Below, one piece after another: positions 9,014 to 19,645 of a DNA stretch of 64,000 nucleotides. The stretch lies in the NCBI GenBank assembly GCA_023432985.1, contig JAEZEQ010000065.1:12-64011 (forward strand). The letters are read 5' to 3'. The stretch comes from Bacteroidota bacterium (lineage in GTDB: Bacteria; Bacteroidota; Bacteroidia; CAIKAF01). The first letter of the stretch is position 1. Each line of letters opens with the position of its first letter. The notes under the pieces were generated by a model. The model was not told where the DNA came from. It did no database searches and was given only the letters and a program-made list of their open reading frames with translations. The translations under genes were made by a program, and so were the position numbers.

Positions 9014-9712
9014 ATGAAAATAGATATTAGCTTTAATGTTTTTACCGACGCCAATGGTGGCGACCCTGATAGTACAAGTCAGACCCTTCGAACTTATCAT
9101 ACATTATTATGGAGCAAAAGATTGCCAAATGGGAAGTATTTTGAATTGGATATGAATAAAAAGGGATATTATTTATGGCATAATTCAGAGCTTGGGAACT
9201 TTCATTTGGGGAGTGATTCGATAACGCATTCGTATAGAAATCAGAAAAGGAAACAATGGTTGATCAAACAAATTCCAAATGAGGTAGACGAACTTTTTGA
9301 TGCCGGTTCAACTATTGGAGCCTTTATTCTTTTTCCTAAAAATAAAATAGACAATAAGTTTACAATCAACCAAGCCCGTGGTGTTATTGGCTTAATTGAC
9401 GACAGGTTTGATTTAACCCTGGAGTGTATTCGGCTTTTTTACGATAGGCAAAAGAGCCCACTTTACGACACATTTTCAAGATACAAGGACTTCTTTGATT
9501 TATTTGAGACCTTTAGCGGATATGTCGATTATTTTTTGCTGAACGATTTACTTGATGCCAATGGAAATATAAAATTTTATATGCCTTTTGATCAATTCAG
9601 GACTAAGCCAACATTTCAGAACGTAGACGATTATTTGAAGTACAAAAATGGCGTAATGGATTTCATAAAAGCACGCAACAAGCGCATAGACGAGTATGCA
9701 AAGTCACTGTAG
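9014..9712 (+). CDS. Hypothetical protein with no recognisable domain, in a very AT-rich segment
   Basis: 232-aa clean ORF with AT-rich intergenic regions on both sides; no signal peptide or TM helix. Confidence 0.5.
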   Translation: MKIDISFNVFTDANGGDPDSTSQTLRTYHTLLWSKRLPNGKYFELDMNKKGYYLWHNSELGNFHLGSDSITHSYRNQKRKQWLIKQIPNEVDELFDAGSTIGAFILFPKNKIDNKFTINQARGVIGLIDDRFDLTLECIRLFYDRQKSPLYDTFSRYKDFFDLFETFSGYVDYFLLNDLLDANGNIKFYMPFDQFRTKPTFQNVDDYLKYKNGVMDFIKARNKRIDEYAKSL

Positions 9713-10040: not shown

Positions 10041-11828
10041 ATGAGCTTAAATACACAATCACTGCAACCCGTTATCAACTTCCTTTGGACAGTTGCGGAT
10101 GATGTTTTGGTAAATACCTACCAAAAAGGAAAATACAAAGATGTTATCCTGCCAATGGTGGTTATTCGCAGACTGGACTTGCTTTTAGAACCCACCAAAG
10201 AACAGGTTTTAAAGACTTTCAATGAATACAAATCCAAACTTCAAAACTTGGACAGCTTGCTGACCAACAGCAAACACGGTTCTGGTTTGGCATTTTACAA
10301 TACTTCAAAGTTTACTCTGAAAAAACTGCTTGACGACCCGAAAAATCTGCGGAGCAATTTTGAAAATTACCTGAATGGCTTTTCTGAAAATGTGCAGGAC
10401 ATCATCAAACAATTTAAATTCAGGAATGAAATTGAAACCTTGGACGAAGCAGACATTCTGTTTTCATTGATTGAAAAATTCTGTTCTCCGAAAGTGGAAT
10501 TACACCCCGACAAGTTGCCACCCTTGGCAATGGGTTATGTATATGAAGATTTGGTAAGACGATTTAACGAAGAAAACAACGAAGAAGCTGGAGAACACTT
10601 TACGCCAAGGGAAATCATTGATTTGATGACGCACCTTGTTTTCTTGCCGGTGAAAGACAAAATTAAGCAAGGAACTTATTTGATTTACGACCCTTGTGTG
10701 GGTAGCGGTGGAATGCTCACCATTGCCAAAAACTTTTTGCTCAATCCAGACGGACTGATTAAAAGCAATGCCACCGTTCATTTATACGGACAGGAAAGCA
10801 CGCCTTTCATTTATGCGACTTGCAAAAGCGATATGCTGATAAAAGGCGAAGACCCCGACAAAATTGCGTATGGCAGCACCTTGAGTGCTTATGGTTTTGA
10901 CAAAGATTTGAAGTTTGACTTCATGCTTACCAATCCGCCTTATGGAAAGACCTGGGCACCTGATAAAAAAGCATTAGGCATTGGCCCCAAAGGTGCCATC
11001 ATTGACAAACGCTTTATGCTGAAAGGCAGCTACAAAGAAGAAGCCGTTACCAGCCGTGTGAATGACGGACAGTTGATGTTTGTATTGCACATGCTTAGCA
11101 AAATGAAAGATACCGAACTCGGTAGCCGTATTGCCTCGGTTCATAATGGTTCGGCTTTGTTTACAGGTGATGCAGGACAAGGCGAAAGCGAAATTCGCAA
11201 ATACATCATCGAAAACGATTTGTTGGAAGCTATTGTAGCATTACCCAACGATATGTTTTACAATACGGGCATTCCAACCTACATTTTCCTTTTTACCAAC
11301 CGAAAAGCCAAAAACCGAAAAGGCAAAGTGCAATTGATAAATGCTACTTCCGAAAAATTTTATTACAAAATGCGGAAGCCATTAGGCAAAAAACGTGTTG
11401 AATTTTCATCAGAACATATTCCTGTAATTGAGAAAATGTTTTTAAATTTTGAAGAAAATGAATACAGCAAAATATTTGATAATGAAGATTTCGGGTATGC
11501 ACAAATAACAGTGCACCGACCTTTGAAAGACGAGAAAGGCAAAATTGTAACCGACAGTAAAGGCAAACCAAAGCCCGACCCAAAACTAAAGAACACCGAA
11601 AACATTCCGTTGAAAGAAGATATACAGGAATTTTTTGAACGTGAAGTGCTACCTTTTGCTCCTGATGCTTGGTGGGAAAAGAAAGATACCAAAATTGGCT
11701 ATGAAATAAACTTTGCCAAATACTTCTATAAACACCAACCTCCTCGTCCTCTGTCAGAAATTGCCAAAGACATTTTTGCCATTGAGCAGGAAACAGACGG
11801 CTTATTAAAGGATATTGTAAAAGGATGA
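10041..11828 (+). CDS. hsdM: Type I restriction-modification system DNA methyltransferase subunit HsdM (N6-adenine)
   Basis: Motif I DPCVGSGGML; motif IV LTNPPYGKTW; HsdM-type N-terminal domain (LWTVADDVL); 595 aa. Confidence 0.92.
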   Translation: MSLNTQSLQPVINFLWTVADDVLVNTYQKGKYKDVILPMVVIRRLDLLLEPTKEQVLKTFNEYKSKLQNLDSLLTNSKHGSGLAFYNTSKFTLKKLLDDPKNLRSNFENYLNGFSENVQDIIKQFKFRNEIETLDEADILFSLIEKFCSPKVELHPDKLPPLAMGYVYEDLVRRFNEENNEEAGEHFTPREIIDLMTHLVFLPVKDKIKQGTYLIYDPCVGSGGMLTIAKNFLLNPDGLIKSNATVHLYGQESTPFIYATCKSDMLIKGEDPDKIAYGSTLSAYGFDKDLKFDFMLTNPPYGKTWAPDKKALGIGPKGAIIDKRFMLKGSYKEEAVTSRVNDGQLMFVLHMLSKMKDTELGSRIASVHNGSALFTGDAGQGESEIRKYIIENDLLEAIVALPNDMFYNTGIPTYIFLFTNRKAKNRKGKVQLINATSEKFYYKMRKPLGKKRVEFSSEHIPVIEKMFLNFEENEYSKIFDNEDFGYAQITVHRPLKDEKGKIVTDSKGKPKPDPKLKNTENIPLKEDIQEFFEREVLPFAPDAWWEKKDTKIGYEINFAKYFYKHQPPRPLSEIAKDIFAIEQETDGLLKDIVKG

Positions 11829-11947
11829 TAAATATAAACTATTTAAAAGCGAAACGCCCCCTTGCTGGAGGCGTCAGACCAAAGATGCTATCTTTAGTGT
11901 TGTTCTTGGATGCAAATTTAATGAAATAAAATTTTAATTTCCAAACG

Positions 11948-12568
11948 ATGTCTGAAAAAAAAGAAAGAGTTGTAGCTTATATCGATGGTTTTAATCTCTA
12001 TTTTGGCATGAGAGAAGCGGGATTTGACCAGTGCAGATGGTTGAATGTAAAAGAATTGGTAAGTAGTTTGTTAAAACCTAATCAGGAATTAGTTGGTGTA
12101 AAATATTTTACAAGCAGAGTAAGTAATAACCCGGACAAACAAAAAAGACAATCTACCTATATTGATGCGTTGGAAAGTACAGGAGCGGAAATTTTTTATG
12201 GTAATTATCAGGATGGCTCAGAAGAATGTAAACGTTGCGGACATGTTTGGCGCACTGCCAAAGAAAAAATGACGGATGTAAATATTGCCACCGCAATTAT
12301 AGTAGATGCTTATAAAAACGAATACGACATGGCCATGCTTATTTCGGGTGATAGTGATTTAACACCACCCATTAAGGCTGTGCATAGCTTATTTACAGAT
12401 AAAAGAGTGTTTATAGCTTTTCCTCCCAAACGACACAATAGCTCTATGGCATTGGTAGCCAAAGGCTCCATGATGATAGGCAGAAAAAAACTGGTAGATG
12501 CGCAGTTTGATGATGAAGTCATAAGCAAAACAGGATTCAAACTTAAAAGGCCAACGGAATGGAAATAA
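11948..12568 (+). CDS. NYN/PIN-like domain protein (predicted RNase fold) with a CxxC-H insertion, inserted between hsdM and hsdS
   Basis: VAYIDGFNLYFG is the NYN N-terminal acidic motif. LISGDSDLTP is the second acidic motif. CKRCGHVW is a Zn-knuckle-like insert. 206 aa. The 3' end overlaps the hsdS start by 10 nt. Confidence 0.6.
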   Translation: MSEKKERVVAYIDGFNLYFGMREAGFDQCRWLNVKELVSSLLKPNQELVGVKYFTSRVSNNPDKQKRQSTYIDALESTGAEIFYGNYQDGSEECKRCGHVWRTAKEKMTDVNIATAIIVDAYKNEYDMAMLISGDSDLTPPIKAVHSLFTDKRVFIAFPPKRHNSSMALVAKGSMMIGRKKLVDAQFDDEVISKTGFKLKRPTEWK

Positions 12569-13830
12569 TGGAATCGAGACATACAAAAACCGCTTGGTTG
12601 GGTGAAGTGCCGTCTCATTGGGAAATAAAAAGACTTGGTGGTTTGTTTGAGGAAAGAAATGAAATCGTTTCTGAAAATGATTATGCGCCATTATCAGTAA
12701 CTATGAAAGGCATAGTTCCCCAATTAGAAAGCGCAGCAAAAACTATGCATGTTGATAACAGAAAAAAAGTTTGCGTTGGAGATTTTGCAATAAACAGTAG
12801 AAGTGACAGAAGAGGTTCTGGTGGCTTATCTTTTTATGAGGGATCTGTTTCTATCGTGAATACTGTTTTAAAGCCTAGTAAGTTCTACGTTCATGAGTAT
12901 ACTCACTACTTACTTACCAATAAACTGTTTCAAGATGAATACTATGCTAAAGGCAAAGGAATAGTTGCCGACATGTGGTCAACAAGATTTTCAGAAATGA
13001 AAACAATTTATCTTCCTGTTCCGCCCAAAGACGAGCAAGACGAAATTGTGCAATACATCAAAGCACAAGAAGAAAAGATAAACCTGTTTATACAAAAGAA
13101 GCAACGATTTATTGAGTTGTTGAAGGAGCAGAGGCAGAGAGTGATAACACTTGCGGTAACTAAAGGAATTAAAAATGAACAGTTAAAAGATAGTCAAATA
13201 GATTGGCTTGGTGAAATTCCTAAAAGTTGGGAAAGGACTGCATTAAAAAGACTAGTTAAAATAAAAATTACTGATGGCCCTCACGAAAGCCCTGTTTTTG
13301 CAGATGAAGGAATTCCGTTTGTGTCAGCAGAAGCATCTGTGAATGGGAGAATAGACCTAAATAGAAAGCGTTGTGATATTTCTAAAGAATTGCATGAGGA
13401 ATATTGTAAAAAGGCAAAAGCAGAATTTGGCGATATTTTAATGGTTAAATCAGGCTCAACTACAGGAAAAATTGCAATTGTAGACTTTCATGATGAATTC
13501 AGCATTTGGTCACCACTAGCACTAATACGACCAAATGAAAGTATTAACAATGAATTTCTTTTTTATAGTTTGTCATCAAATTACTTTCAAAAACAAGTTC
13601 AATTAAACTGGTCTTTTGGAACGCAACCAAATATTGGAATGGGTAAAATTGAACAATTAATTGTTTTGTATCCCAATTCACTTGAAGAACAAAAGCAAAT
13701 CGTATCACACATAAAAACCGAAACCGCCACCTTAGACACTGCCATAGCCAAAGCCGAAAGGGAAATTGAACTTATTCGGGAATACAAGGAAGCTATGATA
13801 GCTGAGGCGGTGATGGGGAAAAGAAAATAA
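12559..13830 (+). CDS. hsdS: Type I restriction-modification system specificity subunit HsdS (two target recognition domains)
   Basis: Two variable TRDs separated by, and ending with, conserved coiled-coil regions (IYLPVPPKDEQDEIVQYI...; LEEQKQIVSHIKTETATLDTAIAKAEREIELIREYKEAMIAEAV); 423 aa. Confidence 0.88.
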   Translation: MEIMESRHTKTAWLGEVPSHWEIKRLGGLFEERNEIVSENDYAPLSVTMKGIVPQLESAAKTMHVDNRKKVCVGDFAINSRSDRRGSGGLSFYEGSVSIVNTVLKPSKFYVHEYTHYLLTNKLFQDEYYAKGKGIVADMWSTRFSEMKTIYLPVPPKDEQDEIVQYIKAQEEKINLFIQKKQRFIELLKEQRQRVITLAVTKGIKNEQLKDSQIDWLGEIPKSWERTALKRLVKIKITDGPHESPVFADEGIPFVSAEASVNGRIDLNRKRCDISKELHEEYCKKAKAEFGDILMVKSGSTTGKIAIVDFHDEFSIWSPLALIRPNESINNEFLFYSLSSNYFQKQVQLNWSFGTQPNIGMGKIEQLIVLYPNSLEEQKQIVSHIKTETATLDTAIAKAEREIELIREYKEAMIAEAVMGKRK

Positions 13831-13834
13831 ATTG

Positions 13835-14077
13835 ATGCCAATGGAGAAAAATAAAATACCAGCCGTTTTTAAAGAGGACTTACAAAAGTTACTCCAAGCC
13901 ATTAATGAAATGGAACCGATTGAAAAAGGGGAAAGACTTTGTAAATTTTGTTCTAAGGTTATTTCATTGGAAAATATTCAACTAATTATTCCAAGACAAG
14001 CAAACACTTTTGATTTCATCTGTGACAGCCCCGTTTGTGTGGAAGAGTATAACCGCAAAAAAGAAATTAAGAAATGA
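13835..14077 (+). CDS. Small Cys-rich (CxxC...Cx4C) putative zinc-ribbon protein
   Basis: 80 aa; CKFC and CDSPVC pairs. It starts 5 nt after the hsdS stop, and its stop overlaps the next start (ATGA). Confidence 0.45.
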   Translation: MPMEKNKIPAVFKEDLQKLLQAINEMEPIEKGERLCKFCSKVISLENIQLIIPRQANTFDFICDSPVCVEEYNRKKEIKK

Positions 14078-16626
14078 ATAAATTAGTTGAATTCATACTC
14101 ATTTACATTCCGCTTTCAGCTTTACTGGTTTTAGCAGGAATATTTTTAGGCGGTGAGGTTTGGGCAAAAGGTAAAGTTGTTTTAGGCGACATACTCAAGT
14201 TTTTTGGCTGGGCTGGAAGTAGTGTAAGAAAACTGAGTGTAAAAAGCGAGTATGAGGGAACTATCAATTCGATAATTCAAGACTATAATAAAAACTTTGA
14301 AAACCCAATTTTGCCCAATTGTAAAATAGAATGGGTTACACCAGAAAATCAACGAAACATTCTGAGAGAAGGCGAAGCAATCATTTGTTTGAGCTTTGAT
14401 AAAAAAGACCACAACCTTAACTTTTATAATGCCACTTTAAATTTTGTTCAAACTGGATTAATCGCAAAAGCAAAGGACTATTTGAACAAGTCATCATCAA
14501 AGGCAATTGACTTACTTACAACTCACATAATTTTAAGAAACAACCGAAAAGAAGTTCTTACAACTTTCCGTAAAAAACTAACTGAATTTGATGATGAGAC
14601 TAAAAAGGAGTTTGAAACACTTGCTCCAACAAACGACAAAGGACTTTTCCTAAATATTCTATTGCCCGAATTTCATTTTTACGGTGAACTCATAGACACT
14701 TTACCGCCAAGTTCAGAATACAATACCGAAGCAAACGGTTTGTTTCATTGGTTCAAAGAATTGGCAACAAGAGAGTTTGACGAAAGAACCAATCTCAAAT
14801 ACATTTCAAAAAATTTAAAGGTTGGTGTAATACTCGTTGGTAAAGATGAAACTTGGGAAAGCCAAGGTGCAGCAGCATACACAAAATGGGCTGACTATTA
14901 CGCTACTGAAAACTACAATTCTGTTTATGTTTTGGCAAGAGGCAGCAACGGCTATGAAAGAGCAACAACAGTTACTAAAATCTTAACCCACTTAAAAGGA
15001 TTTGACCAAATAAATAAAAACCCAAAAATTAAATGTGTTTCGGCAGAAGGTCAGGAATATATTGTTACATGTTATTCTCTTAGACCAAACAAAGCAACGA
15101 TTGCGTATTTGGCTTGGGAAAGTTTCAAAGAACACAATGCAAATGGAAGTTTAGTTCCTGCAATTGTTGATAGCGTTCAAAAAGAAACGGTGGTAGTAAA
15201 CGCATTCGGATTGAAGTTTGAACTTTCAAACAATTTACTTTCTGATATAGAAATTTCAGATGCACGTAAAGTTTTTAAAGTTGAAGATGAGCTTTATTTG
15301 ACCATTGCAGAGTTTGACAGCGACAAACAACACTTAGTTCTATCAAACAAAGGAACAGTTTCCGACCCTAAACATTTTATTGAAGCCGTATTAAATGAAG
15401 ACAAAGTTTACGCTTGTAAAGTTGAAAGAGTTCAGATTGATAAACAAGGATTACAAAGCGGATTGAAAGTTTCAACACCCGAATTGAAACATTGGGTTTA
15501 CATTCCAAAATTTAAAGCGACACCGAGTAGGTTTCTCGACCTGACAACTAAGTTTCCATCAGGAACGGAAGTAAGTGTGATAATTGATAACTACTCTTCT
15601 TTTTCTTCCAACTTCGTGGGCTATTTAGAAACACTAACTGACCCATGGGAAAGCATCACCTTTAATAAACTACAGCCACATGATATTTTAAATGTGACAG
15701 TAAAGCAGATTAATGAATTTTCAGTAATCTGTGAGATTGAAGAAGGTCTTGAATGTGGCTTTTCAAAACAAGAAATTTCATGGAAACCTGAGGAATGCAA
15801 TACTTCAAAATTTAAAGTTGACGATAAGATTGAAGTAAAAGTCGTTGAAATTGATACAGACAAAAAGCGAATTGATGTTTCGATTAAACGACTTTCTAAA
15901 ACACCTGAATTGGAATACTTTGATGCGAATTCAAACAAGGTTGTTGAAGTTGAAATTGCCAAAGTTGTTCCTGAAAAGGGCATAGCAGTAAAATATCCAG
16001 GAAGCACAAATACTGGATTTATTCATTGGTTTGAAATTGGTTATGGTTCGGTTGGCAGGTTTGAAAACATCTACAAACAAGGTGATAAGATTAAAGCAGT
16101 TGTATCAGAATTTGATGCTGAGAAGAACAGTCTAAAGTTTAGTATCAAAAGACAATTCACTCACCAATTTGACGAATGGGCTGCTGCAATTGATGATAAC
16201 GCCTCATTAAAAGGAAAAGTAATTGGCTACTTTGAAAATGGAGCACAGATTGAATTAACTCAAAACGGCTTTACCGTTCAGGCGTTTATTTTGAGAAAGT
16301 TTGTTTCCAATTTCGCTTTTGTTGAAAGTGGCGATTTGCCACATTACTTGCAAATTGGAGAAACCTTTCATTTCTACATTCTTGAAATTAATGAAGACCG
16401 CAAAACCATTTCATTAATAAGAACAGAATATTTAGAACAATCAGAAGAGCCGAATTATGGCGAAAAAATCAAAGTAAAGTATGTGAAGGAAAACCACTCA
16501 AAGGGTTACTTCTATTCTGATGAATTGGAAGGCTGGACAAGCATTCCTGAAAAAGGTATAAAGTTAGGTTCAACAATAGAAGTAATACCAGTTTCACATT
16601 CAACAGGCGAGTATGAAATTGTTTAA
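14074..16626 (+). CDS. Large membrane-anchored protein: one N-terminal TM helix, about 400 aa of unknown globular region, then three or more tandem S1/OB-fold nucleic-acid-binding domains
   Basis: N-terminal hydrophobic helix (FILIYIPLSALLVLAGIFLGG). S1-type domain C-terminal signatures recur at KVDDKIEVKVVEIDTDKKRIDVSIKRL, KQGDKIKAVVSEFDAEKNSLKFSIKRQ and FHFYILEINEDRKTISLIRTEY. No P-loop or known nuclease motif recognised. 850 aa. Sits between hsdS and hsdR on the same strand with gaps of 11 nt or less. Confidence 0.6.
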   Translation: MNKLVEFILIYIPLSALLVLAGIFLGGEVWAKGKVVLGDILKFFGWAGSSVRKLSVKSEYEGTINSIIQDYNKNFENPILPNCKIEWVTPENQRNILREGEAIICLSFDKKDHNLNFYNATLNFVQTGLIAKAKDYLNKSSSKAIDLLTTHIILRNNRKEVLTTFRKKLTEFDDETKKEFETLAPTNDKGLFLNILLPEFHFYGELIDTLPPSSEYNTEANGLFHWFKELATREFDERTNLKYISKNLKVGVILVGKDETWESQGAAAYTKWADYYATENYNSVYVLARGSNGYERATTVTKILTHLKGFDQINKNPKIKCVSAEGQEYIVTCYSLRPNKATIAYLAWESFKEHNANGSLVPAIVDSVQKETVVVNAFGLKFELSNNLLSDIEISDARKVFKVEDELYLTIAEFDSDKQHLVLSNKGTVSDPKHFIEAVLNEDKVYACKVERVQIDKQGLQSGLKVSTPELKHWVYIPKFKATPSRFLDLTTKFPSGTEVSVIIDNYSSFSSNFVGYLETLTDPWESITFNKLQPHDILNVTVKQINEFSVICEIEEGLECGFSKQEISWKPEECNTSKFKVDDKIEVKVVEIDTDKKRIDVSIKRLSKTPELEYFDANSNKVVEVEIAKVVPEKGIAVKYPGSTNTGFIHWFEIGYGSVGRFENIYKQGDKIKAVVSEFDAEKNSLKFSIKRQFTHQFDEWAAAIDDNASLKGKVIGYFENGAQIELTQNGFTVQAFILRKFVSNFAFVESGDLPHYLQIGETFHFYILEINEDRKTISLIRTEYLEQSEEPNYGEKIKVKYVKENHSKGYFYSDELEGWTSIPEKGIKLGSTIEVIPVSHSTGEYEIV

Positions 16627-16636
16627 TAGAGTTTAA

Positions 16637-19600
16637 ATGAAAACAGACACAACAGAAAAAGGATTAGAAGCCCATATTACACAGCACTTGTGTTTGGTGA
16701 ATGCTTTTGAAGAAAGGCATTTCAGTAATTACAATCGTGTGGATTGTGTAGATGAGGATTTGCTTTTTAATTTTCTGCAAGCTACACAGGAAATGGAAGT
16801 AATTAAATTGCAAACCATTCACGGGAGCAATTACCGAAGCAAGGTATTATATCGCTTAAACAATCAAATCAAAACCTTTGGCATTATTGAGGTTTTACGC
16901 AAAGGCATTACGGACAATAACATCAAACTCAAACTGTTTTTTGATAAACCCGTTTCCAACCTAAACGAAAAAGATTTAGCCCTTTACAACCAAAACATTT
17001 TTTCAGTTACAAGGCAAGTGCATTACAGCACACAAAATGAAAACTCGCTGGATTTGGTTGTTTTCATCAATGGTTTGCCCATCATCACGTTTGAACTAAA
17101 AAACGAACTCACCAAGCAAACAGTAAAAGATGCCATTAAGCAATATAAAACCAGTCGTGACCCAAGAGAAGAACTGTTTCGCTTAGGTCGTTGTATGGTT
17201 CACTTTGCAGTGGATAGCGAGCAAATTTGGATGGCAACCCATTTGAAAGGCGAAAACACATACTTTTTACCATTCAACAAAGGTTACAACAACGGAGCAG
17301 GAAATCCGCCTAATCCAAACGGCATCAAATCCGATTACCTCTGGAAAGACATTTTAACCAAAGACCGTTTAACCAACATCATTCAGAACTATGTTCAGTT
17401 GTTTGAAGAAGAAACGGAAAAGATTTTGCGTGACGGAAAGGTTAAAAAGGAGAAAGTAAAGAAACTGATTTTCCCACGCTATCATCAAATTGATGCCGTT
17501 GATAAACTCCTAAGCAATGCCAAAGAAAACGGAGCAGGAAAACGCTATTTAATTCAGCATTCGGCAGGTTCAGGCAAATCAAATTCCATTTCTTGGTTGG
17601 CTCATCAATTGGTTGGCTTGTTTGACAAGAACAACGAGAACACCGTTTTTGATACTGTAATTGTGGTAACCGACCGTAAAGTGTTGGATGCTCAAATCCG
17701 TAACAACATCAAACAGTTTGAGCAAGTAAAAGGAGTTGTGGAAGCCATTACCGAAGGTAGTAAGCAACTGAAAACTGCTTTAGAAGAAGGCAAGAAAATC
17801 ATCATTACCACCATTCAGAAATTCCCATACATCGTTAATGAAATAGGAGAACTGCCCGGAAATAAGTTTGCCATCATCATTGACGAAGCACACAGTAGCC
17901 AAAGCGGAAACACCGCAGGAAAGCTGAATGAAACTTTGGCTAAAGACTTTGAAAAAGTGCAGGTGGATGATGACGAATTTGTGTTTGTGGACAAAGACCA
18001 GTATGACGAACTGACTTCGGAAGACTTGGTAGTGGATATTGTGAAAGGCAGAAAGATGCTGACCAATGCCAGTTACTTTGCTTTTACAGCAACACCAAAA
18101 AACAAAACGCTTGAACTTTTCGGAGAGAAATACAACGACAACGGAAAGGAGAAATTCAGGGCATTTCATCTTTACTCCATGAAACAAGCCATAGAGGAAA
18201 ATTTCATTTTGGATGTATTGCAGAATTACACCACTTACCAAAGTTATTACGCTTTGCTAAAGAAAATTGAAGACGACCCTGCATACGATAAAAACAAGGC
18301 ACAGAAGAAACTGAAAATATTTGTTGAAAGTCATACTCATGCCATTGCCAAAAAAACAGCTTTGATAATTGACCACTTTATGGATAATGTAATCCGTAAA
18401 GCGAAAATCAACGGTTTGGCAAAAGCAATGGTCGTTACGAGCAGTCGCAGAAATGCCGTGAAATACAAAAAGGCATTTGACCAATATTTAGCAGAAACAG
18501 GAAACCCATACAAGGCAATCGTAGCATTTTCAGGAGAAATAGACGGACAAACCGAAGCTGCATTAAATCATTTTTCAAGTGCTGCCATTCCAGACGAGTT
18601 TAAGAAATCGGAATACCGTTTTTTGATTGTGGCAAACAAATATCAAACAGGATTTGACCAACCGCTTTTACATACCATGTATGTTGACAAGAAATTGGGA
18701 GGCGTAAATGCCGTTCAAACCCTTTCAAGACTGAATAGAACAACCGCAGGAAAGAAAGACACATTTGTTTTAGACTTTGCCAATGATGCAGACGAAATCA
18801 AGAAATCGTTTGACCCATTTTTTGAAACCACCATTTTAGGAGAAGCAACAGATCCGAATAAACTTTTTGACTTACAAAGTTCATTAGATGCTTTTCAGGT
18901 TTACACACCCGAACAAGTGCAGGAGTTTTCGCAAAAGATGGTTACGAATGTTCCTGTGGACCAATTGCACAGCATTTTAGATGCAGCAGCCGAAGTATTC
19001 AGAACTTCATTAACAGAAGAACAGCAAGACGACTTTAGAGCAAAATGCAAGACTTATGTTCGCTTGTATGTTTTCCTTGCTCAAATCGTTCCGTTTGTAA
19101 ATCCATATTTGGAAAGACTGTATTTGTTCCTAAACCACTTGCAAAATAAACTAGGCAAACAGCGTGACGAAGATTTGGCACAAGGTATTTTGGACAATAT
19201 AGACATGGACAGTTACCGTCTTCAAAAAGAAGGAGAATTTAATATCCAGTTGCAACAAGGTGATGAGTTAAAGCCAATTCCAACAGACATGAGAGGCGGA
19301 GCAACCGAGCCTGAAATGGAATATTTATCCAACATTGTAAAAGCATTTAACGACCGCTTTGGGACACAGTTCACTAACGAAGACAAGGTTAAAAAAATGA
19401 CTGAGGACTTAATGGCGGACGTTGCACAAGATGCAGAATTTGCGAACGCTTTTAAACATTCAGACGAACAGAACGCTAAAATCACTTTTGAAGAAGTATT
19501 GAAACGAAAACTTATTGACCACATTGAAACCAACTTTGAAGTATTTAAAGAGTTCAACGACAACAAAGAATTTCGTGACTTCTTCGCAGGGACAATGTTC

Positions 19601-19645
19601 AAAATAATGCAAAAAGACTTTTTAAGATTTAACGCAAACAAATAA
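16637..19645 (+). CDS. hsdR: Type I restriction enzyme endonuclease/translocase subunit HsdR
   Basis: N-terminal PD-(D/E)xK nuclease (DLVVFINGLPIITFELK). SF2 helicase Walker A (HSAGSGKSNS). DEAH box (IIIDEAHSSQ). 1002 aa. Confidence 0.92.
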   Translation: MKTDTTEKGLEAHITQHLCLVNAFEERHFSNYNRVDCVDEDLLFNFLQATQEMEVIKLQTIHGSNYRSKVLYRLNNQIKTFGIIEVLRKGITDNNIKLKLFFDKPVSNLNEKDLALYNQNIFSVTRQVHYSTQNENSLDLVVFINGLPIITFELKNELTKQTVKDAIKQYKTSRDPREELFRLGRCMVHFAVDSEQIWMATHLKGENTYFLPFNKGYNNGAGNPPNPNGIKSDYLWKDILTKDRLTNIIQNYVQLFEEETEKILRDGKVKKEKVKKLIFPRYHQIDAVDKLLSNAKENGAGKRYLIQHSAGSGKSNSISWLAHQLVGLFDKNNENTVFDTVIVVTDRKVLDAQIRNNIKQFEQVKGVVEAITEGSKQLKTALEEGKKIIITTIQKFPYIVNEIGELPGNKFAIIIDEAHSSQSGNTAGKLNETLAKDFEKVQVDDDEFVFVDKDQYDELTSEDLVVDIVKGRKMLTNASYFAFTATPKNKTLELFGEKYNDNGKEKFRAFHLYSMKQAIEENFILDVLQNYTTYQSYYALLKKIEDDPAYDKNKAQKKLKIFVESHTHAIAKKTALIIDHFMDNVIRKAKINGLAKAMVVTSSRRNAVKYKKAFDQYLAETGNPYKAIVAFSGEIDGQTEAALNHFSSAAIPDEFKKSEYRFLIVANKYQTGFDQPLLHTMYVDKKLGGVNAVQTLSRLNRTTAGKKDTFVLDFANDADEIKKSFDPFFETTILGEATDPNKLFDLQSSLDAFQVYTPEQVQEFSQKMVTNVPVDQLHSILDAAAEVFRTSLTEEQQDDFRAKCKTYVRLYVFLAQIVPFVNPYLERLYLFLNHLQNKLGKQRDEDLAQGILDNIDMDSYRLQKEGEFNIQLQQGDELKPIPTDMRGGATEPEMEYLSNIVKAFNDRFGTQFTNEDKVKKMTEDLMADVAQDAEFANAFKHSDEQNAKITFEEVLKRKLIDHIETNFEVFKEFNDNKEFRDFFAGTMFKIMQKDFLRFNANK

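Follow-up and report, generated by a model that had tools for sequence, protein, structure and literature searches.

A predicted NYN-domain ribonuclease gene within a type I restriction-modification operon of Bacteroidota is accompanied by a candidate small RNA gene on the opposite strand

Exploring a 64-kb stretch of a Bacteroidota genome (contig JAEZEQ010000065.1; hereafter the window, meaning all 64,000 nucleotides analysed), we found that the spacer between hsdM of a type I restriction-modification (R-M) operon and the following gene, which encodes a 206-aa NYN-domain protein, very probably holds a real, structured RNA gene that is linked to NYN. The small RNA lies on the strand opposite to NYN and was overlooked by an earlier note on this DNA. 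We tentatively favour the reading that NYN and the small RNA form an autonomous mobile module residing in the R-M operon, in which the RNA is an antitoxin-like regulator, and we stop short of calling this mechanism as a whole probable.

Aligning the spacer with those of sister loci revealed conserved hairpins with compensatory changes. Read on the minus strand, the consensus runs from a promoter through 6 nt, a single-stranded AGAACAnC, a 9-bp hairpin (P2), the dinucleotide YC and a GC-rich hairpin (P1) to a U-tract, and the loop sequence of the RNA is GAUAGCAUC (Table 1). The minimum free energy fold of the window RNA (-22.2 kcal/mol) contains two hairpins as in the consensus, and RNAalifold recovered both helices from the alignment of 69 loci, 10 of the 17 pairs showing double compensatory changes. 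In the same alignment 97.7% of the cells were paired, as against 37-50% in controls with slid partners; the covariation score was 0.399 compared with 0.200 in shuffles, none of 500 shuffles reached the observed score, and double-change cells numbered 168 compared with 54 in shuffles. With respect to strand, the minus strand showed 97.7% pairing including 98 G-U pairs and the plus strand 91.1% including 21, while the U-tract and an invariant basal G-U are found on the minus strand only. A simple terminator scan had listed a minus-strand terminator at 11875..11853. Furthermore, a covariance model (R1) built from the 69 NYN-linked copies gave a single match in the 64-kb window, at 11840-11906 (-), with 73.6 bits and an E value of 7.5e-19.

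The small-RNA promoter abuts the NYN start codon. TTG followed after 19-21 nt by TAnnTTTG is the Bacteroidota promoter consensus; TAnnTTTG was present in 54 of the 69 homologous loci, and in 32 TTG stood 19-21 nt upstream of it. The type of promoter depends on the phylum: among loci with a GC content of at least 0.5, TTGAC-N17-19-TAnnnT was found 4-10 nt before the AAC of the RNA in 15 of 31 (control region, 0/120), and low-GC loci carried TAnnTTTG in 53 of 89 (control region, 1/120). Given that a phylum-appropriate promoter is placed before AAC, the case for independent transcription of the RNA, starting at AAC, is strong.

Two other identities for the motif were considered and set aside. An integron attC site would share the AAC start and the GTT(TC) end, but the flanks misfit RYYYAAC/GTTRRRY, and complementarity extends over only about 3 bp. 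A target site for homing-type insertion of NYN was judged unlikely, since the motif accompanies NYN wherever it occurs in unrelated surroundings; moreover, in the R-M loci the motif is no pre-existing terminator, all genes there being on the strand opposite to it. A scan of window positions 11700-12100 against Rfam 15 gave no relevant match at E<=10, eight viral loci with the motif gave no match at the gathering score, and no description of an NYN-linked RNA antitoxin, of the structured RNA or of its loop sequence was found in the searchable literature. Within the limits of Rfam 15 and of the searchable literature, the partner RNA and its phage copies are thus new. No match to a proteobacterial-type copy of the RNA was found by blastn among the phages of GenBank or in E. 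coli genomes.

To characterize the linkage of the RNA to NYN we sampled one genome per species, which yielded 74 NYN loci, mostly from Bacteroidota, with some from Chlorobi/Ignavibacteria and a few from oddly labelled metagenome-assembled genomes (MAGs), and extracted the 170 nt upstream of NYN from all of them. An RNA element of about 75 nt precedes NYN in 71 of 72 genome loci, whatever lies further upstream. Scanning a metagenome collection with the pattern of the RNA alone returned at least 120 loci, to which the following counts refer. An NYN homologue lies 34-196 nt from the RNA on the opposite strand in 82 of 120, with protein identities from 89% down to 38% and a locus GC content of 0.24-0.66, and a six-frame search with a hidden Markov model found NYN in 83 of 120; all 100 of the 100 loci checked match R1 at E<=6e-11. 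The distance from the 5' end of the RNA to the NYN start codon on the opposite strand is 23-62 nt, with a median of 40. The arrangement is also found on a Thermus oshimai plasmid, where the RNA lies on the other strand, 61 nt upstream of a 45%-identical NYN (E 3.6e-14). NYN homologues occur on further plasmids, including ones of 3.4 kb; beside the 34%-identical NYN of the 3.4-kb plasmids of E. coli and Serratia, R1 found no RNA (best E 0.69), and the linkage may not extend to this distant subfamily. One of these, the 3461-bp E. coli plasmid NZ_CP063347.1 (locus L250), to which plasmids of identical length correspond in E. coli and Serratia, has other hairpins upstream of NYN, and its only other annotated gene encodes a VbhA-family antitoxin.

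The reverse linkage is looser. Frameshifts or stop codons interrupt NYN in about 10 genome loci (L064 and L066-L074) that have an intact RNA upstream, which reflects either pseudogenisation or errors in the assembly of MAGs. In 38 of the 120 metagenome loci the RNA is an orphan without NYN, and its neighbours there include genes for Abi_2, an Abi_2-Cas3 fusion, DUF3800, Schlafen/AlbA_2, hsdM, NinB and an IS110 transposase. This asymmetry, with NYN nearly always accompanied by the RNA and the RNA often alone, and the split-NYN loci are what one would expect were the protein harmful without its RNA, the RNA then being an antitoxin-like or obligatory regulatory partner. Among individual loci, the Abi_2 fusion (L191) is a 1053-aa AbiD/F-like protein joined to a Cas3-like HD nuclease-helicase, with the start of its reading frame 166 nt from the orphan RNA. 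Two copies of the RNA were seen in L169 (~3548-3680), L205 (3588 and 5465) and L175 (623 and 2850); the pair is in tandem only in L169, recalling the repeat arrays of RNA antitoxins.

Copies of the RNA are also carried by phages. The core pattern of the RNA matched 51 IMG/VR contigs, and 26 distinct viral loci match R1 over its full length (E 2e-18 to 3e-5), unlike chance matches in coding DNA. NYN is encoded by one of the 26 (L104), and the other 25 have the RNA alone. The GC content of the contigs ranges from 0.23 to 0.67, and in several a promoter is embedded in the end of an open reading frame (ORF).

As for the protein, the earlier note had proposed a NYN/PIN-like nuclease fold on the grounds of an acidic signature, and had pointed out a CxxC-H insert. 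The peptides VAYIDGFNLYFG (residues 9-20), LISGDSDLTP (131-140) and CKRCGHVW (94-101) are all present, and the Pfam NYN profile PF01936 matches residues 8-168 with an E value of 5.6e-13 and 50.1 bits (gathering score 24.2). D13, D110, D135, D137, C94 and C97 are invariant among 55 full-length homologues down to 47% identity. The insert held up in part: its CxxC (C94, C97) is invariant, but H99 is kept in only 40% of the 55 homologues. We therefore rejected a CxxC-H zinc triad in favour of a bare CxxC as the conserved feature. The CxxC forms the tip of an inserted β-hairpin, a low-confidence part of an AlphaFold2 model that was computed from 36 homologues and reached a pLDDT (predicted local distance difference test) of 87; that two such motifs might form an intermolecular zinc "hook" is only an idea. 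A Foldseek search with the model returned the LabA-like protein VPA0982 (2qip) as the sole significant match (E 2.8e-11), sequence similarity to 2QIP being marginal (E 0.024). The intact acidic site, the Pfam match and the structure match thus bear out the proposed fold, and the modelling supports reading the 206-aa protein as a NYN/PIN-like α/β fold with an intact acidic site, for which metal-dependent endoribonuclease activity is predicted. Besides NYN and its match to the family HEC-09 described below, no Pfam, NCBIfam or PADLOC domain was found in the protein, and no NTPase or ABC-ATPase domain.

Homologues of the protein fall into 5433 clusters at E<=1e-5, placing the ORF far beyond chance, and among the best 120 of the 5433 clusters identity is nowhere below 79% and lengths span 204-239 aa, making this an unusually conserved family. 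It differs from other LabA-like/NYN proteins (PF01936; VPA0982, 2QIP; the NYN domain of MARF1, 5YAA/6FDL; and the B. fragilis NYN), which are without its CxxC β-hairpin insert, and it has in addition a C-terminal extension of about 45 residues and the invariant basic motifs TSRVSNNPDKQKRQ, FPPKRxN and IGRKK (invariant cores KQKRQ, PPKR and GRKK). With these extra basic motifs the NYN protein itself appears, from sequence, to be the most plausible recogniser of the RNA. The CRISPR-associated NYN of B. fragilis is a Mn2+-dependent nuclease of single-stranded RNA (PMC11346440). When the apex of P2 is opened (window 11887-11889), its loop AUAGCAU has U as second and A as sixth nucleotide, resembling U33 and A37 of an anticodon loop; that the apex serves as a substrate mimic for a PIN-like tRNase is purely an idea.

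The window protein matches the PADLOC model HEC-09 (PDLC04163) end to end (E 1e-92, residues 6-206 against positions 2-203 of 203), and by this profile match the gene belongs to HEC-09, a gene family already known. HEC-09 is one of nine candidates embedded in Hma systems that were described by Payne, Hughes, Fineran and Jackson (bioRxiv 10.1101/2024.01.29.577857). The HEC-09 protein of Pseudomonas amygdali has 206 aa, as has the window protein, and shares with it a MARF1-like NYN fold with conserved aspartates. Both genes were recognised by being embedded inside a multi-gene defence system, which is Hma for the published gene and the type I R-M operon, at the hsdM/hsdS junction, for ours; other loci of the family adjoin a type IIG-like methylase or TIR proteins. 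The preprint treats HEC-09 as a lone gene, and a term search of its main text found no mention of an adjacent conserved small RNA. Embedding in a type I R-M operon has served before to nominate defence genes. Both the gene family and the notion that an RNase embedded in a defence operon may itself act in defence can therefore be found in published work and in a public annotation tool, and what the earlier note proposed for NYN is, as it was written, largely already known and partly wrong.

The gene arrangement was as previously described. The 206-aa ORF begins with ATG and is separated by a 119-nt spacer from the end of hsdM; its stop overlaps the start of hsdS by 10 nt, and Pfam agrees that the flanking genes are type I hsdM and hsdS, with hsdR further on. 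A second in-frame ATG of hsdS at 12568 would give an alternative 1-nt overlap with NYN (TAATG). The overlap of the NYN stop with the hsdS start is also found in the sister loci L007 and L014. These two share with the window the architecture hsdM-NYN-hsdS, and their HsdM is about 89-90% identical to that of the window. In a second architecture, hsdM-hsdS-(TIR protein)-NYN-hsdR, the R-M family is only 25-33% identical to that of the window. Judged from these comparisons, NYN has become embedded independently in type I R-M systems of two unrelated families, which speaks for a genuine affinity to such operons. Over the whole genome sample, tblastn with the window proteins found hsd genes within about 10 kb of NYN in 14 of the 74 loci, and in the RNA-seeded metagenome set hsd genes lie beside about 11 of the 120. 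Neighbours outside R-M systems include ribonucleotide reductase (five loci), TIR/SEFIR proteins (three), PNPOx (three) and single housekeeping genes. Four loci (L002, L003, L004 and L005) carry near-identical combinations of type I R-M, TIR and NYN genes, with NYN 89% identical to that of the window, in MAGs labelled Bacteroidetes, Limnohabitans (Betaproteobacteria), Phycisphaerales (Planctomycetota) and Flavobacteriaceae; this similarity reflects either very recent horizontal transfer or mis-binning.

Together, the data are consistent with spacer and ORF forming a horizontally mobile two-part module that was dropped as cargo into a type I R-M operon. The first part would be a metal-dependent endoribonuclease with a NYN (PIN-like) domain, belonging to HEC-09. 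The second would be a structured RNA of about 65 nt that has a promoter and a terminator of its own and is transcribed divergently from NYN, and this RNA most likely would serve as cognate inhibitor or regulator of the nuclease in the manner of an antitoxin. By the more likely route the RNA would bind the NYN protein through its invariant loop and linker nucleotides, as in type III toxin-antitoxin (TA) systems, and by the less likely one it would pair with read-through operon mRNA carrying its perfect complement, as in type I systems. If the supply of the labile RNA ceased, as after a phage-imposed halt to transcription in the host, the nuclease would become free to cut RNA and abort the infection, and the orphan RNA copies of phages would act as counter-defence decoys. 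That the module is autonomous follows from its two insertion points in R-M systems, from the mostly non-R-M loci and from the plasmid copies; by the comparison of loci it is independent of the R-M genes as well as of the S1 genes described below. We infer the RNase activity, the toxicity, the inhibition by the RNA, the trigger and the defence phenotype. The preference for binding to protein derives from stems that covary while loops and linkers stay invariant across phyla, which argues for structure-specific recognition over simple antisense pairing. A cis-antisense contribution is possible in the window because any read-through transcript that extends from hsdM across NYN and hsdS necessarily contains a perfect complement to the RNA. 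From the sequences found, the module would range over Bacteroidota, Proteobacteria-like high-GC lineages, Chlorobi/Ignavibacteria and Deinococcota.

Several observations weigh against this reading. The only family member put to the test, HEC-09 of P. amygdali, was cloned together with its native upstream region and gave no protection against any phage tried, these being a BASEL subset and classic coliphages, and toxicity was not reported for it (10.1101/2024.01.29.577857); this negative assay counts against a simple defence role. Many NYN loci adjoin housekeeping genes (ribonucleotide reductase, RRF, ATP synthase). The RNA is single-copy and on the opposite strand, without a tandem array, and the toxin fold is unlike that of type III systems. 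Pairing of P2 is nearly as good on the plus strand, so that a role of the complement in the NYN/hsdS transcript is conceivable, and a by-eye look at the conserved region found no convincing plus-strand TAnnTTTG promoter for NYN. Finally, the start of the phage RNA usually coincides or overlaps with the stop codon (UAAC...) of an ordinary gene, among them, from a by-eye reading of translations, genes for class II ribonucleotide reductase and for lysozyme-like and baseplate-like proteins; the phage copy may simply be a terminator or stabiliser.

Of the alternatives, the one that holds up best is that NYN is no defence enzyme but a LabA-like housekeeping or regulatory RNase, with the RNA as its substrate or as a regulator that it matures and with the embedding in R-M operons incidental. 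The lack of phage protection by HEC-09 (10.1101/2024.01.29.577857) would fit such an enzyme, as would the many housekeeping neighbours, the uncharacterised LabA-like protein 2qip as closest structure and the B. fragilis NYN, which trims CRISPR RNA rather than killing the cell (PMC11346440). It accounts less well for the patchy and clearly horizontal spread, with 89% identical proteins in MAGs of different phyla and copies on plasmids down to 3.4 kb, for the repeated embedding in R-M systems and the TIR protein neighbours, for the frequent pseudogenisation, and for an RNA that occurs as an orphan in phages and beside Abi_2, DUF3800 and Schlafen-AlbA_2 genes. We consider it unlikely, if a serious contender.

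It is also distinctly unlikely that the element acts in cis rather than as a small RNA in trans, either as the plus-strand 5' leader of the NYN mRNA or as an insulating terminator that travels with the cassette. P2 does pair well on the plus strand (91% of cells overall, with position 58/72 better on plus), the operon transcript in the window must read through the element, and the phage copies follow ORFs like an ordinary terminator. However, the U-tract and the invariant basal G-U belong to the minus strand, on which a phylum-appropriate promoter is set to fire at the first nucleotides of the element; an ordinary terminator would not keep an invariant 9-nt apex and the single-stranded nucleotides AAC..C/CGAC across phyla, and this one points away from NYN and is unable to shield it against transcription from upstream.

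The earlier note had likened NYN to the anticodon nucleases PrrC and RloC, that is, to a guardian RNase which the type I R-M complex silences until a phage inhibits restriction; in such a scheme an anti-restriction protein would disable EcoprrI-like restriction and so unleash NYN. The positional half of this comparison stood: as with PrrC/RloC, the RNase gene lies within a type I R-M cluster, its stop overlaps the start of hsdS, the family is embedded at two positions in two unrelated type I R-M families, and PrrC is the textbook RNase in such a position according to a figure legend of Payne et al. (10.1101/2024.01.29.577857). Dependence on the R-M partner did not stand. PrrC is, according to the same preprint, almost exclusively embedded in R-M systems, a near-obligate linkage, whereas that of NYN is facultative (14/74), its other neighbours being unrelated. 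PrrC/RloC have an N-terminal ABC-ATPase-like domain, whereas the window protein is a single NYN domain of 206 aa without an NTPase or ABC-ATPase regulatory domain and without homology to them, and the conserved partner of NYN is an RNA and not the R-M system. Given that four-fifths of the loci lie outside R-M systems and that a regulatory NTPase domain is missing, a PrrC-like dependence is very unlikely, and in the respects tested NYN is neither a homologue nor an analogue of PrrC/RloC.

The last alternative, also from the earlier note, joins NYN to the two genes between hsdS and hsdR, which encode an 81-aa Zn-ribbon protein (Zn81) and an 850-aa S1 protein (S1_850), the latter a member of a length-conserved family. 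All three are RNA-related, co-directional and within one operon, but tblastn of Zn81 and S1_850 against the 74 NYN loci found no homologue, hsdS separates NYN from the pair, the pair (79-81 aa plus 850 aa) recurs without NYN on three contigs (in a Cyclobacterium defence island, in a conjugative-element-like region of Sphingobacterium and on another contig), and sister loci hold other genes in that slot, which together refute a three-gene system at the level of co-conservation and leave it next to no credence.

The slot itself varies. With the same backbone hsdM-sRNA-NYN-hsdS as in the window, L014 has an OLD-like ATPase-TOPRIM and a UvrD helicase (Gabija-like) between hsdS and hsdR (11934-15565), and L007 a GmrSD_N protein and an AAA_15/AAA_21/DUF3696 ATPase (11871-14095), and by this comparison the slot is a site of exchangeable cargo. 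Type I R-M operons of Bacteroidota thus appear as carriers with at least two cargo slots, hsdM/hsdS for the NYN module and hsdS/hsdR for the S1 cassette, Gabija-like or GmrSD genes.

Returning to the favoured pairing of NYN with an inhibitory RNA, we compared it with known TA systems. ToxIN-type systems are linked to phage defence, and phages can carry look-alikes of the antitoxin, such as the pseudo-ToxI of phage PhiTE. In type III systems (ToxIN, CptIN, TenpIN) an endoribonuclease is preceded immediately upstream by a small structured RNA, and the same is predicted for the NYN module. Type III toxins, however, have the ToxN/AbiQ fold and not a NYN/PIN-like one, and their antitoxin is a tandem array of short repeats upstream on the same strand, with a terminator between it and the toxin gene, whereas the window RNA is single-copy, on the opposite strand and has its own promoter and terminator. 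Type I toxins are small hydrophobic peptides, unlike the soluble enzyme fold of the 206-aa window protein. Closer to it among type I systems is the SymE/SymR type, in which the RNA lies opposite the 5' region of a nuclease-like toxin gene, as does the window RNA, and a transcript entering NYN from upstream carries a perfect 65-nt complement; it differs in that RNAs of the window family leave the start codon uncovered, with the 5' end at a median of 40 nt upstream, and in that stems covary and loops are invariant, pointing to recognition of structure over plain antisense. In fold, RNA arrangement and type of toxin the NYN module is outside the known type III and type I families, while it may work like either.

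That the module represents a new class of RNA-antitoxin abortive-infection or addiction system, in which an RNA directly restrains a PIN-like RNase and phages have captured the RNA as a mimic, commonly joined to the stop codon of an ordinary gene, we regard as somewhat unlikely. If true, it would explain the negative result with HEC-09 in the heterologous E. coli assay. HEC-09 belongs to a small group of guilt-by-embedding candidates with a failed defence test and is at present listed as a single gene; with an RNA beside about 99% of family members, the unexplained negative becomes a testable two-component hypothesis. Should the RNA inhibit NYN, a NYN/PIN-like toxin would for the first time have an RNA antitoxin as its partner, and antitoxin mimicry by phages would gain a new example. 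Either way, an uncatalogued, widespread and strongly covarying RNA motif merits an Rfam entry.

Table 1. Features of the candidate small RNA and of the R-M operon in the window, with examples of phage copies of the RNA
Feature	Position	Strand	Remarks
hsdM, type I R-M methyltransferase	10041..11828	+	Pfam N6_Mtase E 5.8e-56, HsdM_N; PADLOC MTase_I E 1e-235
Candidate small-RNA gene (~60-65 nt), divergent from NYN	11840..11906	-	covariance model, covariation, terminator
Single-stranded 5' end of RNA			AGAACAAC
Hairpin P2	11878-11898	-	9 bp, invariant apex GAU-AGY-AUC
Linker between P2 and P1			CU (consensus YC)
Hairpin P1, GC-rich	11853-11875	-	consensus starts GACGC, ends GCGUUUC
U-tract after P1			UUUCGCUUUU; P1 and U-tract form an intrinsic terminator
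Small-RNA promoter, Bacteroidota type	11913..11944	-	sequence and alignment of homologous loci
Promoter element TTG	11942-11944	-	followed by 21-nt spacer
Promoter element TAnnTTTG	11913-11920	-	TAAATTTG; ends 6 nt before start of RNA model
NYN-domain protein, 206 aa, HEC-09 family, predicted metal-dependent endoribonuclease	11948..12568	+	ATG start
hsdS, type I specificity subunit	12559..13830	+	Pfam Methylase_S; PADLOC Specificity_I E 2e-98
Two-gene cargo outside NYN module (81-aa and 850-aa proteins)	13832..16626	+	
81-aa CxxC...CxxxC protein (Zn81)	13832-14077	+	
850-aa protein (S1_850)	14074-16626	+	N-terminal helix, Alba-like domain, S1 repeats
hsdR, type I restriction subunit	16637..19645	+	Pfam HSDR_N, SWI2_SNF2, ResIII, T1R_D3-like; PADLOC REase_I
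Phage RNA examples (IMG/VR contigs L079-L129)	L100:5086-5151; L124:1118-1183; L081:5120-5197		

All ORFs of the operon, from hsdM through NYN, hsdS and the 81-aa and 850-aa genes to hsdR, are co-directional. PADLOC scans of NYN neighbours returned mostly redundant R-M models and added little. Directly upstream of hsdM lies a gene for a DUF6994 protein (9014-9712; Pfam E 1.2e-88), and the opposite strand carries, about 4.5 kb ahead of hsdM, one for a transcriptional regulator with WYL/WCX domains (4650-5576(-)); both are domain types frequent around defence loci.

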